A stretch of 64,000 nucleotides of DNA, taken from NCBI RefSeq assembly GCF_023055435.1, contig NW_025964334.1, positions 46,066,001 through 46,130,000 of the forward strand, in the 5' to 3' direction. The position numbers and the translations under genes are program-made. Below, one piece after another: positions 23,240 to 31,354 of the stretch. Under the pieces are notes generated by a model that saw only the letters and a list, made by a program, of their open reading frames with translations, did no database searches and was not told the origin of the DNA. Numbering within the stretch: position 1 is the stretch's first letter; the number at the start of each line of letters is the position of its first letter. The DNA comes from Haliotis rufescens (lineage: Eukaryota).

Positions 23240-23900
23240 TCTCTCCCACGGTCTACCCAAAGGGTCATGATAGTTCCAGTGAAAGTATACAAAAACACCA
23301 CACGAAGATTCAAGTCTGTCAAGATTGGGCCTCTTGAACTTTCAAAGCCAAATGCACCCCTCCAGAAGTTAGCAAAATGCTTGGATAGTTTCTGGTTAGT
23401 AAGTTTCTCACTTCATATACCTGTGTCACGACGTCCATCACGGAGTGGCTTTATTCAGTGTGCTGTAAGGGGAGACAATCATAAAAAAGTAAAAGTCAGA
23501 TTCTACTATTGTAAACCAGGACTCATCCCAGCCTGATACCATCATTCGGCTTTGTGTTTTGCACAAAAGTTGGCTGAGTGGTATTCTCTTGGTGTTTGCC
23601 CTGTCACATTTGACCAGCCTCTCTACATCAAAGCAACCGAAATTGTGAAATACCCTTACCCAGAACTGAGCAAGATAGTAATTCGACTTGGAGGGTTTCA
23701 CTTACACATGTCGTATATGGGATCGATTGGATATATCAGGGGCGGAAGTGGCTTAGAAGATCTGTGGGCAACTGTCTATGCCCCATACAGTGTACTCGAT
23801 ATGATGACAGGTCATGCATATGCTCGTGTACTCCGTGAATATCTGCTATGAACAGCAGCAATCATGTCCACATGACAGAGTGAGTACCTCGGTGAGGTGG
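23240..23900 (+). pseudogene. Decayed DNA-transposon transposase fragment, Academ-like
   Basis: Frameshifted, stop-interrupted peptides LDSFWLV...PSRSGFIQ and CPVTFDQPLYIKATEIV...IVIRLGGFHLHMSYMGSIGYIRGGSGLEDLW...MMTGHAYAR. I recognise the TFDQPLY/RLGGFH/GSGL motifs from invertebrate Academ-type transposases; the family call is from memory. Confidence 0.6.
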
Positions 23901-24210
23901 ATCTCACTCGTCTCTTACACAAACACTGTTGAATGCCGAATGTACCACCGAGTCTAGGAACACCTGAATACCTCGGTGAGGTGGATCTCACTCGTCTCTT
24001 ACACAAACACTGTTGAATGCCGAATGTACCACCGAGTCTAGGAACACCTGAATACCTCGGTGAGGTGGATCTCACTCGTCTCTTACACAAACACTGTTGA
24101 ATGCCGAATGTACCACCGAGTCTAGGAACACCTGAATACCTCGGTGAGGTGGATCTCACTCGTCTCTTACACAAACACTGTTGAATGCCGAATGTACCAC
24201 CGAGTCCAGG
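23881..24210. repeat. 84-bp minisatellite, left arm (about 4 copies) of an array interrupted by the LINE
   Basis: Unit tgaatacctcggtgaggtggatctcactcgtctcttacacaaacactgttgaatgccgaatgtaccaccgagtctaggaacacc. Confidence 0.97.
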
Positions 24211-24776
24211 TAATTATCACGTTATCCTTTCATCCTTATTCACATACATCACTCTCACCGAATTAATCACAAAACCCCTAAATCCTTAAAACCATCAACA
24301 ACACTCAACTCTTATAAATAACCAACACCTTATCCTCCCCCATCTCCCTAACACAGCTCGCACTCATTTCTACTCGCTACCCACGCCCACCACTCAAACA
24401 CACCCTTTGACCCAACTCCTAAAAACAAAAAAACACCTAATCCCCCCTTCTCCTTAACACAACGCACGCTCTTTCCTACTCACCACCCACGCCCACCACT
24501 CACATACCTCCACTCCTTCGACTAAATATCTCCTAATCCCCGCTTTCCACTTGTCTCACCTAATCCCAGCCTTCCAGCAACAAAATAAATCTTTAATAAT
24601 TAATCCATTTCACAAACCTTCCTACTAAAACCAACAACAAATAACCACCGCAACCTCCTCCGCCTCCTAAACACAACTCACCAAGTAAAAACAACAAACC
24701 AACTCACCTCCCCAAAACACCACTCCCACTCCACCAACACTCACCACAACACACGCTCTCCAACTCTCCAAACAAC

Positions 24777-26417
24777 ATGACTGACACCCGCAACGCCACA
24801 CTCGCAGACATGCCAGCTCCTAACTCACCCACGCCTGCGGAAGCGCACAACACTTCCGGGAGGTCACTCGAAAACATCGTCCCGACCGAGTATGGCGAAA
24901 ACACGACACACACCACCCCCACCAAACCAGCTAACTCGCCACCTCAAAACACCAAAAAACGCAAACTCGACACATCCACTCCACCTCCATCGCCCACACC
25001 CTCCCCGGCCGCCTTCCTCACCACCTTCGCCCTCTACTTCTTCTCAGCAGGCTCAGGCACCACTCTCTCACTAGAACTTTCGGCAGATAAAATAGGACTT
25101 TGGTTTAAAAGAGAAAAAATAAATTACAACAATATTAAAAAAGCCAACAAAGGATACCAGATAATCTTCCCTAACCGAGAATCTTACAACGCAGCAAATA
25201 AAATAACTCAAATATTCCACGTCACAGTAATCAAACAAACACCTAATTGGCAACAATATACACGAGGCGTAATTAGGGTTAACCCAAGGGAAACAACTGA
25301 GGACTTACAATTATACTCTCTAGAAGCTAACATAAACCAAGACCAAAACCCTCAACCCCTAATCACCAGCACGCGTAGAATAACCTCAACTAGAAACGGA
25401 AAAACGGTCCCAACCTCCATTGTCATAATCAACTTCAAAAAGACCGCTAAATTCCCTGAAGCCCCCAAACACATATCCTTCGGAGCCCACACCAACTTAG
25501 AAGTCAAACCCTATATAAAGCAGGTTAAGCAATGTACAAAGTGCCTCAAATACAACCACACTGCCTCCCAATGCACATACCGTAAAACTAAATGTAAAAA
25601 ATGCGCACAAACAGACTGCCCAGGCACATGCACACCCTGGTGCATCCACTGCAAATCCACCCAACACACTTCACTCTCAAACCAATGCCCATACAGACAC
25701 ACACTCACCCAGCAGGCCAACAAACACATAAACATAGACACGGCTAAAATCCAAACACGAAAATTTGCTACACCTGCATCTAAACCACTCCTCCCTACAC
25801 CACACCCAAACACCATCCCACAAACAAACACCACACCCATAACCGACAGCTCTGTCTGGGGCCCCTACCGAGAAACCGCACCCACCTCACACATACAAGC
25901 AGCCACTCAACCAACCACGAACCCTCCCACATCTCACATAGCCAAAACATCAACCCCCGCATGCAAAACAAACCTCAAAATGACCACCACAACACGACCC
26001 TCATCCAAGCACCCTACAGCCCATATGGTAACAACGCTCTCCCACAAGCAAGCACAACAACAAAACACAAACACTAAGAAATCATCAGCTACACCCATCC
26101 CACAAACACCTTCACAATCCTCCACATCACATGCCTCCCCCATGGAAACTCAATCAGCTAAACCTAATCTAACCGATGACGAAGATTTCTCCACTACTGA
26201 GGAAACAATAGACACTACTCCAACTAAAACAAACCAAACTCCCCAACCAGCCAACACCCAAAACCTAAATAACCTCACCTTACTCCTAGCATACATGTAT
26301 AGTCAAAACTCACCAAAAGCTAGCATGAAATCCTTCTACAAAGTAGCATTCAATCTAAAATTAACCGATCTTCCCTTCTTCCTCTTTAACCTCCATCTAA
26401 AAGAACTCACCGAATAA
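24777..26417 (+). CDS. LINE ORF1, gag-like nucleic-acid-binding protein (546 aa)
   Basis: Zinc knuckles CTKCLKYNHTASQC, CKKCAQTDCPGTC and CIHCKSTQHTSLSNQC; basic NLS-like TKKRKL; Pro/Thr-rich tails; uninterrupted frame. Confidence 0.92.
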   Translation: MTDTRNATLADMPAPNSPTPAEAHNTSGRSLENIVPTEYGENTTHTTPTKPANSPPQNTKKRKLDTSTPPPSPTPSPAAFLTTFALYFFSAGSGTTLSLELSADKIGLWFKREKINYNNIKKANKGYQIIFPNRESYNAANKITQIFHVTVIKQTPNWQQYTRGVIRVNPRETTEDLQLYSLEANINQDQNPQPLITSTRRITSTRNGKTVPTSIVIINFKKTAKFPEAPKHISFGAHTNLEVKPYIKQVKQCTKCLKYNHTASQCTYRKTKCKKCAQTDCPGTCTPWCIHCKSTQHTSLSNQCPYRHTLTQQANKHINIDTAKIQTRKFATPASKPLLPTPHPNTIPQTNTTPITDSSVWGPYRETAPTSHIQAATQPTTNPPTSHIAKTSTPACKTNLKMTTTTRPSSKHPTAHMVTTLSHKQAQQQNTNTKKSSATPIPQTPSQSSTSHASPMETQSAKPNLTDDEDFSTTEETIDTTPTKTNQTPQPANTQNLNNLTLLLAYMYSQNSPKASMKSFYKVAFNLKLTDLPFFLFNLHLKELTE

Positions 26418-26436
26418 AATAAAAAATAAAAAATAA

Positions 26437-29400
26437 ATCACCAATCACCCGAACCCAATATTCGAAGGACTAAATATTTTTCAGTGGAACGCCAACGGAC
26501 TCACCTCCCACGGCCATGAACTAAAAACTAAATTTAAACTAAATAAAGGCCCTCACATTGCTTGTATACAGGAAACCAAATTCTCAAAAAAATCCAAATT
26601 CACACTACCTAACTACAACTCAGTTAGAACTGACAGAGCTAAACCGAAAACAAGAAGAGCCGCAGGAGGACTAATCATATTTATCAGGGAAGATATAAAT
26701 TACGAAGAAATAAAAATAGACACGCCAAACCTAGAAGCCAACGGCATTAAAATCACATTAAATAACCGAAACATAAACATCATAAATATTTACCACTGGG
26801 CGGAACAAAAAGTCCAACCTGAGGATCTAAACAAACTACTCCAAATAAGCGATAAATCTACTATATTCCTAGGAGACTTTAACGCTCACCATCCTACATG
26901 GAGCATAGGTGATAAAATAGATAGTCATGGCAAATTAATCTCCGAATGGATAGAAACAAACGACCTAGTACTCCTTAATAGCAACCAACCCACGAGGTAC
27001 GATCAGATAAACCAAAAAATGTCGGCTATCGACCTAACCATATGCACCGCAGATCTAGCCCAAAGTACTCAATGGGAAGTGCACGACGTCCCGCTAGGTA
27101 GTGACCACTTCCCCATAAACATAACTATAGGAAATACAAACGTACCAATCCAAACAGAAAACCAAGAACCAAAATTCCATTACAATGAAGCTAACTGGGA
27201 CCAATTCCAAGATATCTGCAACGAAGCTAACTTAAACGAAATAGAAAATAATGATCCAGAAACCTATTGTAAAAACCTAACAGACTATATAATAAACGCA
27301 GCCAAAACCTCCATCCCCTTCAAAACATCTAAGACAGGCAAACCGACGGTACCATGGTGGAATGAGGAAATAGAACAGACTAGACGAAAACGTAAATCAG
27401 CCTTCAATAAAGCAAAACGCGACTACAAATATTTAAACATAGCCCACGAACTAAACCACCAGGTTCAAAAACTAGTCCAAATAGCCAAAAGAAGAGACTG
27501 GAAAAAATTCTGCGAAGGTATAAATAACCGTACAGATGCCAGAATGGTCTGGCGCAAAATCCACGCCATTAGAGGCTTAAAACGACATAAGAAAACCCCT
27601 AACATTGACAACTCAACCAACCCCGCCCAAAAAGCAAATAATCTCGCCAACCACTTTTCGGCCGTTAGCAGTAACACCAACTTCAGTCAAAAATTCCAAG
27701 ATAAACTTAAAACAGAAAACAAACCCACAAAAGAACCAAACAATAACAATCTAGAAATAAATCAACCCTACACAATGGAGGAGCTCCTCTACGTAATCCA
27801 AAACAGGAAAAAGGGCACAGCCCCAGGATTAGACCTAACTTCTTACCAAATAATTAAAAAACTCCCCCTAAAACTACTCCAGGCACTACTCAAACTATAC
27901 AATCTCATCTACCTAAACGGACAGGTTCCTACTCCCTGGAAACAGGCCCTAGTCATACCAATCCCTAAACCTAATAAACCAGCTAATCAAGCTAACTCAT
28001 ATAGACCAATATCCCTAACTTCAAACTTATGTAAAGTAATGGAATCAATGGCTAAAAATAGATTACAACATTACTTAACCCAAAATAACATCATAAACCC
28101 AGATCAAAGCGGTTTCACTCCTGGCCGCTCAACCCTAGATAACCTCGCCCGACTAGAACAAGATATTAAGACAGGACAACTAAATAAACAATATACCACA
28201 GGCATCTTCTTAGACTTCTCTAAAGCCTTCGACATGGTATGGCACGATGGGCTAATACAAAAACTTAAAAAAATAGGACTCAAAGGTCAGATAATAAACT
28301 ACATCCAGGACTTCCTAAACAATCGTAAAATAACCGTGGGTATAGACCAAACTCTATCGGACCAATGTCCCCTAGAAAATGGTACTCCACAGGGCAGTAT
28401 CCTCAGCCCCACCCTCTTCAATATAATGATAAACGATCTATTCGAGGGCCTATCCCCTAAAGTAAACACATCAAAATTCGCGGATGATGGAGCCATCTGG
28501 ATCCGCACTAAAAGCATGAACATGGTCCAAAATTTACTCCAAAAATCTCTTAATAAAATACAACAATGGGCTGACAAATGGGGCTTCTCCCTTAACTCAG
28601 AAAAAACAACAGGAATAGTATTCAAACATAAAAACATGAAACCCGCCTCCCCAAGCCTCCAGCTAAACAACCAAACAATCAAATTTCAAAAACAAACCAA
28701 ATTCTTAGGACTTATTTTCGATGAACATCTCACCTGGGATGCTCACATCCAAAACCTAACAACTAAATGCAGTAAAGACCTAAACACCCTAAGATGCCTA
28801 ACTGGCTCTAACTGGGGAGCATCCAAAGATACCCTCCTCTCTCTCTACATATCACTAATTAGATCAAAACTAGACTACGGCTGCGCCATATACAACACCC
28901 TAAACAACTCTCTATCTAAAAAACTTGACTCAATACAATATCAGGCTCTCAAACTAATTACACGCACCCAACATGGCACCTCCTACACCTCACTTCAGGC
29001 CTTAACAGGAGAAATGCCACTAAATCTACGCAGGGAACAGCTAAGCTTAAATTTCTGGGCCGCGTCCCAATCAAACCCTCTCATCCAAAACTTAATAAAC
29101 CAAAACATCAGCCCCAAAAACCAAGCTCTAGCTCGTAAACACCCCTTACTTACCCCAATATCCCAAAGAATAACAAACTACCTAAATGAACACCAAATTA
29201 AAAATCTTAAACAAAACTGCAAACAATCAAATATCTTCACCCCTAAACTTAAAATACCCAAAATAGACACAACACTAGCTAGCCAAATAAATAAACAAAC
29301 CGACCCAAACATAGCTAAAACTACCACACTAGCATACATACACGAAAATTGGCCAAATTGGTGTCACATTTACACGGACGGATCCTCAGATCCGACCTCC

Positions 29401-30219
29401 AAACACACAGGTTTCGGAGTCCATACCACACAACCAACTAAAACCACACAATCCTTCCGACTCCCAAACAACCAATCAATATTCACGGCAGAACTAATGG
29501 GCATGGCCTCAGCCCTCCATAATCAAGAATCCAAAAACCACAAAAAAATCCTAATACTTACCGACTCCCTAAGTGGACTGCAAGCCCTCCAAAACAAAAA
29601 TACCAAAAACCGACCTAAATTAATAAATCAAATACTTAAAAGCTCCAACGACCTAACTAAGGCAGGCAAACAAATAACCTTCTTGTGGATACCCGCCCAC
29701 GTAGGAATATACGGTAATGAAAACGCCGATAAAGCAGCTAAACTATCCCTCAAAATCCCAGAAATAAGCTTAAACTTACCTATCTCAAAATCAGAAATTA
29801 AAAGTGTAAACAAGCAAAAAATCACAAAAAAATGGCATAACCTATATCTAAAATCAAATAGCCAAATCAAAAAAGTGCTCAGCAAACCACTAACCAAACC
29901 AAAAATTCTCCATCCATCCAAAAAAATCGACAGAGTAATCACTAAACTCCAAACAGGACACACCAACCTAAATAACCACCTAAAAAAAATTAAAAAACAC
30001 ACTTCAGGTAACTGCCCACACTGCAAACAACCAGAAACCCCAGAACACGCACTCATCCACTGCACACACTACCTAACACATCGAACCGCATTACAAACCA
30101 CCCTCAATCTAAACAAGGCTCTAACTCTAGAAGCAATACTAAACCCACAAAATAAACTAGAAAACTTCAAGGCCTTAGGCGTATTCTTAATAAAAACGGA
30201 ACTAATAAAACGCATCTAA
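26437..30219 (+). CDS. LINE ORF2: AP endonuclease, reverse transcriptase, RNase H and C-terminal CCHC (about 1260 codons, non-AUG start)
   Basis: The frame is open from 26437 (after TAA 26434-26436). APE motifs NIFQWNANGL, CIQETK, GGLIIF, LGDFNAHH, IDLT, SDHFPI; RT motifs YRPISLTS, FLDFSKAFD, GTPQGSILSP, FADD; RNase H motifs YTDGS, TAEL, TDS, WIPAHVGIYGNENAD; C-terminal CPHC...EHALIHC. The ORF track start at 27019 truncates the endonuclease. Confidence 0.95.
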   Translation: MTNHPNPIFEGLNIFQWNANGLTSHGHELKTKFKLNKGPHIACIQETKFSKKSKFTLPNYNSVRTDRAKPKTRRAAGGLIIFIREDINYEEIKIDTPNLEANGIKITLNNRNINIINIYHWAEQKVQPEDLNKLLQISDKSTIFLGDFNAHHPTWSIGDKIDSHGKLISEWIETNDLVLLNSNQPTRYDQINQKMSAIDLTICTADLAQSTQWEVHDVPLGSDHFPINITIGNTNVPIQTENQEPKFHYNEANWDQFQDICNEANLNEIENNDPETYCKNLTDYIINAAKTSIPFKTSKTGKPTVPWWNEEIEQTRRKRKSAFNKAKRDYKYLNIAHELNHQVQKLVQIAKRRDWKKFCEGINNRTDARMVWRKIHAIRGLKRHKKTPNIDNSTNPAQKANNLANHFSAVSSNTNFSQKFQDKLKTENKPTKEPNNNNLEINQPYTMEELLYVIQNRKKGTAPGLDLTSYQIIKKLPLKLLQALLKLYNLIYLNGQVPTPWKQALVIPIPKPNKPANQANSYRPISLTSNLCKVMESMAKNRLQHYLTQNNIINPDQSGFTPGRSTLDNLARLEQDIKTGQLNKQYTTGIFLDFSKAFDMVWHDGLIQKLKKIGLKGQIINYIQDFLNNRKITVGIDQTLSDQCPLENGTPQGSILSPTLFNIMINDLFEGLSPKVNTSKFADDGAIWIRTKSMNMVQNLLQKSLNKIQQWADKWGFSLNSEKTTGIVFKHKNMKPASPSLQLNNQTIKFQKQTKFLGLIFDEHLTWDAHIQNLTTKCSKDLNTLRCLTGSNWGASKDTLLSLYISLIRSKLDYGCAIYNTLNNSLSKKLDSIQYQALKLITRTQHGTSYTSLQALTGEMPLNLRREQLSLNFWAASQSNPLIQNLINQNISPKNQALARKHPLLTPISQRITNYLNEHQIKNLKQNCKQSNIFTPKLKIPKIDTTLASQINKQTDPNIAKTTTLAYIHENWPNWCHIYTDGSSDPTSKHTGFGVHTTQPTKTTQSFRLPNNQSIFTAELMGMASALHNQESKNHKKILILTDSLSGLQALQNKNTKNRPKLINQILKSSNDLTKAGKQITFLWIPAHVGIYGNENADKAAKLSLKIPEISLNLPISKSEIKSVNKQKITKKWHNLYLKSNSQIKKVLSKPLTKPKILHPSKKIDRVITKLQTGHTNLNNHLKKIKKHTSGNCPHCKQPETPEHALIHCTHYLTHRTALQTTLNLNKALTLEAILNPQNKLENFKALGVFLIKTELIKRI

Positions 30220-30496
30220 AAACACAATAACCTACCAAATCAAAATCACATAACCAAACAAACATCCACCATACCCAGCTCCCTTAGTTCTCCTCCCCAA
30301 TCCCATCGGCATCTATTCCAAATCTCAAAATTCCCAAATTCTATATAAGCAACCCCTAAAACCCCCCTCTTGGGTTGCACAGACCACCTTCGCCCCTTTC
30401 GGAAACACATTAAATGGCCTGGCCGGGCCCGTGTGCGAAATACGCATCAGTCGGAAAGCGCACGTTAAATCTCCAAAGTAAGTAAGTAAGTAAGTA

Positions 30497-31295
30497 AGGA
30501 ACACCTGAATACCTCGGTGCGGTAGATCTCACTCGTCTCTTACACAAACACTGTTGAATGCCGAATGTACCACCGAGTCCGGGAACACCTGAATACCTCG
30601 GTGCGGTAGATCTCACTCGTCTCTTACACAAACACTGTTGAATGCCGAATGTACCACCGAGTCCGGGAACACCTGAATACCTCGGTGAGGTGGATCTCAC
30701 TCGTCTCTGAGATGTACACAAAACACTGTTGAATGCCGAATGTACCACCGAGTCTAGGAACACCTGAATACCTCGGTGAGGTGGATCTCACTCGTCTCTG
30801 AGATGTACACAAAACACTGTTGAATGCCGAATGTACCACCGAGTCTAGGAACACCTGAGTACCTCGGTGAGGTGGATCTCACTCGTCTCTTGGATGTACA
30901 CAAAACACTGTTGAATGCCGAATGTACCACCGAGTCTAGGAACACCTGAATACCTCGGTGAGGTGGATCTCACACGTCTCTTGGATGTACACAAAACACT
31001 GTTGAATGCCGAATGTACCACCGAGTCTAGGAACACCTGAATACCTCGGTGAGGTGGATCTCACACGTCTCTTGGATGTACACAAAACACTGTTGAATGC
31101 CGAATGTACCACCGAGTCTAGGAACACCTGAATACCTCGGTGAGGTGGATCTCACACGTCTCTTGGATGTACACAAAACACTGTTGAATGCCGAATGTAC
31201 CACCGAGTCTAGGAACGCCTGAGTACCTCGGTGAGGTGGATCTCACTCGTCTCTTACACAAACACTGTTGAATGCCGAATGTACCACCGAGTCTA
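30497..31295. repeat. 84/91-bp minisatellite, right arm (about 9 copies)
   Basis: Same unit as 23881-24210. The 91-bp variant has ctcttggatgtacacaaaacactg in place of ctcttacacaaacactg. Confidence 0.97.
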
Positions 31296-31354
31296 GTCTT
31301 ACTGTTGAGGTAAATTGTAGAACTTCTGACTAACGGCAGTCTATTCAAAGTCAA

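Follow-up and report, generated by a model that had tools for sequence, protein, structure and literature searches.

A young I-group LINE subfamily of Haliotis rufescens that lost the AUG codon of ORF2 and probably still translates it

How is the second protein of a LINE produced when its reading frame has no start codon? The question is raised by an element found in a 64,000-nucleotide stretch of the Haliotis rufescens genome (the window), whose features are collected in Table 1. Judged by its coding content the element is a two-ORF LINE of the I group, placed at group level, with an ORF2 product made of APE endonuclease, reverse transcriptase, RNase H and a carboxyl-terminal Cys/His motif. 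This assignment is based on the order of the ORF2 domains, on three ORF1 Cys/His knuckles (two of CCHC type and one CCCC), on the tandem-repeat 3' tail, and on 5' truncation and target site duplications (TSDs), which are hallmarks of target-primed reverse transcription. A Pfam search with ORF1 gave no family above its cut-off. The Drosophila I factor and its group share the three ORF1 Cys/His motifs, the APE-RT-RNase H-Cys/His organization and a tandem-repeat tail (PMC2881922); the (TAAG)n tail and the AUG-less ORF2 set the abalone element apart, the comparison being made at the level of the group and not of the clade. Other copies extend 85 to more than 200 bases further into the 5' UTR, upstream of position 24209.

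Table 1. Features of the element and of its flanks, in positions of the window
Feature	Positions	Strand	Remarks
TTC-subfamily copy of an I-group non-LTR retrotransposon	24209..30498	+	ORF1 and ORF2 open, 5' UTR truncated
ORF1, 546 aa, normal ATG	24777..26417	+	
Three Cys/His knuckle-like motifs in ORF1	25533..25688	+	CX2CX4HX4C, CX2CX4CX3C, CX2CX4HX6C, read from the translation
A-rich inter-ORF spacer, 43 nt	26418..26460	+	stops in three frames (26420, 26427, 26434)
ATC, first sense codon of the ORF2 frame	26437..26439	+	candidate near-cognate start
ATA adjoining the ancestral start on its 5' side	26458..26460	+	candidate near-cognate start
TTC at the site of the ancestral ORF2 ATG	26461..26463	+	A at -3 and G at +4 retained
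ORF2 frame, 1260 codons, no AUG until codon 195	26437..30219	+	
APE endonuclease domain, residues 13-227	26473..27117	+	Pfam PF14529, PF03372; alignment to L1 EN begins at L1 residue 9
First AUG past ORF1, out-of-frame Met-Asn-stop	26516..26524	+	in 91/93 TTC copies
First in-frame ATG (M195), within the endonuclease	27019..27021	+	column conserved in 6% of 80 homologues
Reverse transcriptase domain	27961..28716	+	PF00078, E 2e-47
RNase H domain	29365..29745	+	PF00075, E 2e-18
C-terminal CCHC motif of ORF2	30013..30063	+	from the translation; first two Cys conserved in 97% of homologues
(TAAG)n tandem tail	30476..30498	+	other copies end likewise
84-bp satellite, left flank of the insertion	23881..24210	.	
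84/91-bp satellite, right flank of the insertion	30497..31296	.	

A preliminary description of this DNA placed the ORF1 stop at 26415-26417, a TAA closing the ORF2 frame upstream at 26434, and the first in-frame ATG at codon 195, downstream of the QWN, QET and GDFNAHH motifs. These readings were all reproduced from the sequence. It also held that a single frameshift or readthrough from ORF1 is blocked by stops in both frames; the stops are present, though one frame was missed in that count. TAA triplets begin at 26415 and 26427 in the frame of ORF1, at 26434 in that of ORF2 and at 26420 in the third, and all three frames are accordingly shut at the junction. The ORF2 frame then opens with ITNHPNPIFEGLNIFQWN, and four out-of-frame ATGs precede its codon 195. 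The same AUG-less junction was found in 29 of the 30 top DNA matches (the 30th, L017, was left out of the reading).

The identity of the lost start codon is given by relatives of the element. Older sister copies and related families carry ATG at 26461-26463, from which the frame reads MEGLNIFQWN; this is the case for 93 exact sister copies and for 17 of 18 loci of related families. About 155 copies have at this site TTC, a Phe codon, which also accounts for each of the 100 listed among the 162 copies with a non-A codon there. One-step intermediates are rare (ATC in one copy, ATT in two, ATA in two) and TTG, TTA or TTT was found in none. From this distribution the AUG was lost recently, as a derived change within one lineage, and its absence is not a property inherent to the clade. 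The sample of ATG copies comprises 80 of the 93 exact ones and a few of the 49 with one mismatch. Note that a candidate case of convergent AUG loss, the ACG of L081/L213, was rejected because it is one private copy. The preliminary description proposed non-canonical initiation, which these data support, and looked for the lost ATG at 26437 or 26458, which was the wrong place: ATG occurs at 26437 in no copy and at 26458 in none of the 100 copies listed of 155, seemingly ordered by mismatch.

In an ORF2 tree of 87 TTC and 22 ATG copies, built with the start codon left out, the TTC copies are nested among older ATG copies and form several young bursts. Their median terminal branch is 0.38%, versus 1.04% for ATG copies, and 60 of the 87 are younger than any of 21 ATG copies; the TTC branch is, on this tree and by copy counts, the youngest and most numerous of the family. 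Two ATG copies (L106 and L263) are placed within the TTC group. A search for a young ATG copy with the TTC haplotype yielded none, its single match being 1.6% diverged. An ORF2 of at least 1230 aa is preserved in 11 of 86 full-span TTC copies (7 of them with ORF1 too) versus 0 of 17 full-span ATG copies, and all intact copies sampled in the family carry TTC. The insertions have normal TSDs of 8–13 nt; duplications of at least 8 nt border 28 of 41 5'-truncated TTC copies, as compared to 2% of 2450 mismatched pairs.

The variation of ORF2 was counted after excluding eight near-identical TTC copies and L200, which is the same insertion as L199. The ratio of synonymous to non-synonymous changes is 32:23 on internal all-TTC branches and 460:935 on terminal ones (p 2e-4); in a codon-aware count it is 44:27 for variants found in at least three copies and 316:790 for private variants (p 2e-8). 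The depletion of amino-acid changes persists in transitions and in transversions, each taken alone, and significance holds whether five poly-A slip stretches are masked or not. The shared amino-acid changes also avoid conserved columns (4/30 vs 288/806, p 0.01).

TTC copies are thus the youngest of the family and the sole intact ones sampled, they have normal TSDs and their shared variants are poor in amino-acid changes, for which reasons ORF2p is probably made in cis after the loss of its AUG. Activity in cis without an ORF2 AUG, of the type described for L1, is in this way supported indirectly, by age, intactness and selection. The reading that we favour, with a probability of roughly two in three, is that a young I-group LINE subfamily exchanged its ORF2 ATG for TTC, kept expanding, and likely uses its own RNA to make full-length ORF2p, through a reinitiation that follows ORF1 and needs no AUG.

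An alternative that we consider unlikely is that the TTC subfamily makes ORF1p only and that ORF2p of ATG-bearing relatives copies TTC RNA in trans, the apparent selection being acquired by recombination. I factors lacking ORF2 function can be complemented in trans. A possible helper is at hand in L215, which belongs to a related family, bears the ATG, is intact and has ~84% ORF2 identity, and the related, mosaic families are ~98% alike in their 3' half or 3' UTR; selected variants could therefore have been acquired by recombination, and help in trans is conceivable. Five copies moreover have in common a TCC>TAA stop at codon 1032, and four of them cluster on the tree. This stop adjoins a poly-A slip hotspot and its five carriers have no other common derived site outside such hotspots, while the other recurrent stops are scattered across the tree. 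Several observations speak against mobilisation in trans. The neutral evolution of ORF2 on propagating lineages, expected of a trans-mobilised derivative, is at variance with the paucity of amino-acid changes among shared variants of ORF2 as a whole, and the depletion remains for variants that are absent from all non-TTC loci fetched (12:15 vs 134:616, p 0.0016). No clade is marked by a shared frameshift: of the 184 indel events 167 are private, and the remainder falls almost wholly in A or C runs. An intact ATG copy of the same family was found in none of the 82 fetched, and a 3.7-kb ORF2 that lay idle would presumably have been closed in the course of successive bursts.

Production of ORF2p in cis would require a ribosome that has finished ORF1 to remain attached, or to be drawn over the unstructured A-rich spacer, and to restart at or near the old start position, either at the TTC or at the adjoining ATA. 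The ATC at 26437 would be a less likely start. Both ATC and ATA have a poor context, and their conservation is equal in ATG copies. The spacer has the length of 43 nt in 80 of 100 TTC copies and 36–50 nt in the others, and between the ORF1 stop and QWN no ATG is present in any frame in 92 of 93 non-redundant TTC copies. A stable RNA fold was not detected at the junction, where four windows scored no better than shuffles (z 0.45, 0.80, 1.32 and -0.22), and a UGGGA motif is absent from 26300-26417 (115 nt ahead of the ORF1 stop). A small number of ORF2p molecules per RNA is believed to be enough, so that a low yield would suffice.

Such a mechanism has parallels in known systems. ORF2 of mammalian L1 is translated by an unconventional, AUG-independent route (Alisch 2006, as cited in PMC5972666, PMC11485995, PMC13705589 and PMC5009743), and constructs with a mutated ORF2 AUG remain competent for retrotransposition (PMC13705589; PMC11485995), although its removal from natural mouse L1 costs 70–80% (PMC13705589). 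Both elements are bicistronic APE-type LINEs whose ORFs lie close together (spacer of 63 nt for L1 and of 43 nt for the abalone element), with an ORF2 that is apparently usable without AUG. They differ in that the AUG of L1 is natural and was removed experimentally, whereas here it was lost in nature, the loss being fixed through the exchange of two bases, which gave a non-cognate Phe codon; furthermore, the AUG-less branch is here the youngest and largest, and the element belongs to the I group and has RNase H. Termination-reinitiation, proposed here, is the route to ORF2 in the two-ORF non-LTR element SART1, which in contrast has an overlapping UAAUG and a downstream structure (PMC3894237, PMC5972666), where the present junction lacks both an AUG and a significant fold and leaves a gap of 43 nt. 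Another family of the same abalone genome has an overlapping stop-start, ATGA. Caliciviral reinitiation accepts non-cognate codons at the original position, and a position-dependent restart tolerant of near- or non-cognate codons, as suggested here, would resemble that directed by the calicivirus TURBS; the UGGGA core is missing from the abalone junction and its stop-to-start distance is 43 nt, compared to an overlap of 1–14 nt in caliciviruses (PMC5972666). A natural non-LTR ORF without start codon, the RT ORF, is found in Polysphondylium NLTR-B, which differs by having three separate ORFs; the passage describing it is silent on an ancestral AUG or on selection (PMC5911963).

The ribosome could also reach ORF2 without initiating anew, by readthrough combined with a frameshift or by sliding over the spacer. 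The A-rich, unstructured nature of this region would be suited to it, and bypassing was considered for TART and L1 (PMC5009743). This possibility is very improbable: with stops in all three frames a fusion needs at least two recoding events, spacer length and the frame relation of the two ORFs vary among TTC copies and in ATG families, and the ancestor had a free-standing AUG.

Even less probable is that reinitiation, leaky or repeated, places the start of ORF2p at M195, which would leave the protein without its endonuclease. This is the sole route by an in-frame AUG, and codons 10–194 taken alone have a neutral-like S:N of 2:6 for shared variants, equal to the ratio of private variants there. 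The normal TSDs and the four out-of-frame AUGs upstream argue against it. So does the number of shared amino-acid changes in codons 10–194, which at 6, compared to 139 private ones, is below the neutral number (p 0.004 with one neutral reference and 0.046 with another), none of the six falling on a conserved column; these counts suggest a weak signal of selection on the endonuclease part by itself. A constraint acting on the RNA at the 5' end of ORF2 did not reach significance (shared synonymous deficit 2 vs 49, p 0.10), and between families the divergence of four-fold sites there is normal.

Splicing of an upstream, AUG-bearing exon to the acceptor-like TTTTTCAG at 26477-26484 is less probable still. 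This motif lies just ahead of TGG AAC and a donor-like GTAATT is found at 24210. ATG families have this motif too, however, and in the protein it corresponds to the first endonuclease strand. No genomic copy with foreign sequence ahead of 26485 was retrieved with the single pattern tried, and no internal deletion bounded by GT-AG was found in 200 fetched loci, where many rows are artefacts of repeated 5' UTR matches. The contigs examined list no joint to 26477-26484, contigs being unable to prove absence. Finally, the idea that the copy is dead and its TTC a private mutation or a sequencing error, the fallback of the preliminary description, has nothing in its favour beyond the view from a single window and is practically eliminated, since TTC is shared by the entire youngest subfamily (with 100 copies fetched) and both junction forms were seen in four of four independent sequencing runs, which excludes an assembly error.

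In the literature searched, which left subscription papers mostly outside its coverage, there is no report of a natural LINE lineage having lost the AUG of ORF2, and in the accessible parts of that literature AUG-independent ORF2 reinitiation appears solely for engineered mammalian L1. The mechanism of LINE ORF2 translation is still called open (PMC3894237, PMC5381506, PMC11485995). The abalone family offers a natural pair of junctions that are two bases apart, ATG and TTC, of which the one without AUG has come to mark the dominant lineage, still under selection, and the rule for start-site choice can thus be tested directly beyond mammals. Annotation pipelines would label such elements dead or begin their ORF2 at M195. 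It is possible, though on balance doubtful, that in this LINE lineage translation of the endonuclease/RT protein starts at a Phe codon (UUC), by position-dependent reinitiation that dispenses with a Met codon, and that the AUG-less form displaced its AUG parent, a low output of ORF2p being tolerated or favoured. If the UUC start were true, it would parallel, in vivo and by evolution, the L1 mutants engineered without an AUG, and the ATG junction, two bases off, would serve as its matched natural control.

The retrotransposon junction between ORF1 and ORF2 is closed in all three frames by TAA codons starting at 26415, 26420, 26427 and 26434, which bears out the preliminary description in that readthrough or frameshifting from ORF1 is blocked by stops. 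Its statement that no AUG precedes the endonuclease in the ORF2 frame also holds, the first in-frame ATG being codon 195, with four out-of-frame ATGs ahead. The endonuclease alignment to L1 EN begins at residue 13 (N18 opposite L1 N14), which requires translation of a functional protein to begin no later than about codon 12. Part of the 5' UTR present in other copies is missing from the window copy. In L146, L156, L207, L210 and others this UTR is apparently modular: most copies have a longer leader upstream of 24209, some start about 85 bases ahead of 24209 with CAGTTGCAG, and a UTR unit is repeated in L210; the upstream reading stops short of the true 5' end. Window positions 1-64000 are mostly long tandem arrays of 13, 29, 33, 36, 41 and 79 bp units.

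Features of the LINE element in the window
Feature	Position	Remarks
Two-ORF non-LTR retrotransposon	24209-30498	inserted in satellite
ORF1	24777-26417	
ORF2 frame	26437-30219	1260 open codons; APE endonuclease, RT, RNase H

The AUG-less junction is common to 29 of the 30 top DNA matches, and the window 23-mer is present in about 155 copies. A private mutation or sequencing error, with the family carrying ATG at 26437 or 26458, is thereby contradicted: ATG at 26437 was found in no copy searched and ATG at 26458 in none of 100 among the matches listed. In four of four independent runs, which carry three organism labels, contigs show both junction forms, and the two changed bases are covered to almost the same depth. 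With a degenerate pattern for the N-terminal endonuclease motif QWN, 1933 matches were obtained. Relatives read MEGLNIFQWN, which identifies codon 26461-26463, TTC in the window, as the ancestral ORF2 start. The 23-mer with ATG at this position is found in 93 copies and that with a codon not beginning with A in 162 (TTC in 100/100 among the matches listed), while intermediates are almost absent (ATC in one copy, TTG in none). ATG occupies the position in 17 of 18 related-family loci, the exception being a single-copy ACG, and the called start of database homologues lies 4-59 residues before the motif, mostly 4-12 (94/120 with the motif found). The loss of the ORF2 start codon is real, recent and lineage-wide, in an apparently active LINE of the I group.

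The loci compared are 100 TTC copies, 18 from related families, and 82 close ATG copies, 80 of them from among the 93 exact matches and two others. Among full-span copies, an ORF of at least 1230 aa persists in 11 of 86 with TTC, seven of which also have an ORF1-size frame, and in none of 17 with ATG; one related-family element, L215, has it as well. On an ORF2 tree from which the start codon was excluded, 87 TTC copies lie, in several young bursts, within older ATG copies, and two ATG copies (L106 and L263) fall inside the TTC group. Median terminal branches are 0.38% for TTC versus 1.04% for ATG copies, and even the youngest of 21 ATG copies is older than 60 of the 87. A TTC-type ORF1 marker is found in only one ATG copy, 1.6% diverged. 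Flanking duplications of at least 8 nt border 28 of 41 5'-truncated TTC copies (one a false tandem match, two the same insertion) versus 2% of mismatched pairs. By sequence, the AUG-less branch is apparently the living one of this family. Many older ATG copies (L095-L148, L252-L270) have truncation points in common, beginning at 25540, 25973 or 26139 and ending at 28093 or 28819; hence they increased in number as already truncated fragments, probably within some other repeat. In the 5' flanks of 43 5'-truncated TTC copies (among L151-L290), a TATA-like box lies 10-45 bases upstream of the junction, mostly 24-32, in 14, versus 0-4 in each of five control windows farther off; several such copies share a small set of host repeat families. 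These flanks suggest that promoter-like sites are preferred as insertion targets.

The sequences indicate that ORF2 is a frame that remained under selection after start-codon loss. The synonymous to non-synonymous ratio is 32:23 on internal all-TTC branches versus 460:935 on terminal ones (p 2e-4). Counted codon-wise in 92 non-redundant TTC copies, it is 44:27 for variants in at least three copies versus 316:790 for private ones, and 12:15 versus 134:616 (p 0.0016) at codons absent from every non-TTC locus. The contrast is stable when CpG sites are left out, whether poly-A slip stretches are masked or not, and within transitions and transversions separately; shared amino-acid changes sit on poorly conserved columns. 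Over codons 10-194 alone the shared ratio, 2:6, resembles that of private variants there, and the sole arguments for endonuclease selection are the low number of shared amino-acid changes (p 0.004 and 0.046) and their unconserved position (0/6 on columns with at least 30% conservation). At codon 1032, next to a poly-A hotspot, five copies have a stop in common. ORF2 A/T runs (28260-28272, 29530-29548, 29978-29996) mutate recurrently, with A>T and C>A changes at the edges of runs, creating stops in unrelated copies.

TTC elements may instead be helped in trans by an ATG-bearing relative, and the selected-looking variants may be imported. The intactness of L215 and the mosaic nature of related families, whose 3' half or 3' UTR is about 98% alike, make this possible. 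However, were copying only in trans, changes in the propagated lineage should resemble post-insertion changes, and the internal and terminal branches differ. Seven loci (L213, L220-L222, L225, L226, L228) are 70-88% identical in ORF1 and endonuclease, rising to about 98% in the 3' half or last 800 bases, and L108 has the reverse pattern; these mosaic identities point to frequent recombination among LINE families. An ORF1-ORF2 fusion by frameshifting would take two events, and the frame relation of the ORFs is not conserved. Splicing as the source of a start left no trace in the genomic copies or contigs searched.

AUG-independent reinitiation in cis best explains the loss, with roughly two chances in three. 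The preliminary description had proposed non-canonical initiation or a point mutation disabling one copy; the former is thus supported, and the latter is set aside since TTC is lineage-wide. The simplest reading of the mechanism would be an L1-like route, in which ORF2 is reached by reinitiation after ORF1 and AUG was never strictly required, so that it could be lost at tolerable cost. Among candidate starts, TTC at 26461-26463 retains the old position and context, ATA directly before it has a poor context, and a start at ATT 26476 would cut into the first endonuclease strand. No IRES-like or SART1-like fold is predicted at the junction, and the TURBS core is absent. The literature searched, whose coverage was incomplete, yielded no description of a natural LINE lineage losing its ORF2 AUG and replacing its parent. 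AUG-independent reinitiation after ORF1 is known from L1, and the TTC subfamily would be a new natural variant of this kind of translation. In a second abundant I-group family (QWNCRGL; L064, L070, L072-L080) the ORF2 ATG overlaps the ORF1 TGA (ATGA), and two coupling designs would thus exist side by side in this genome.
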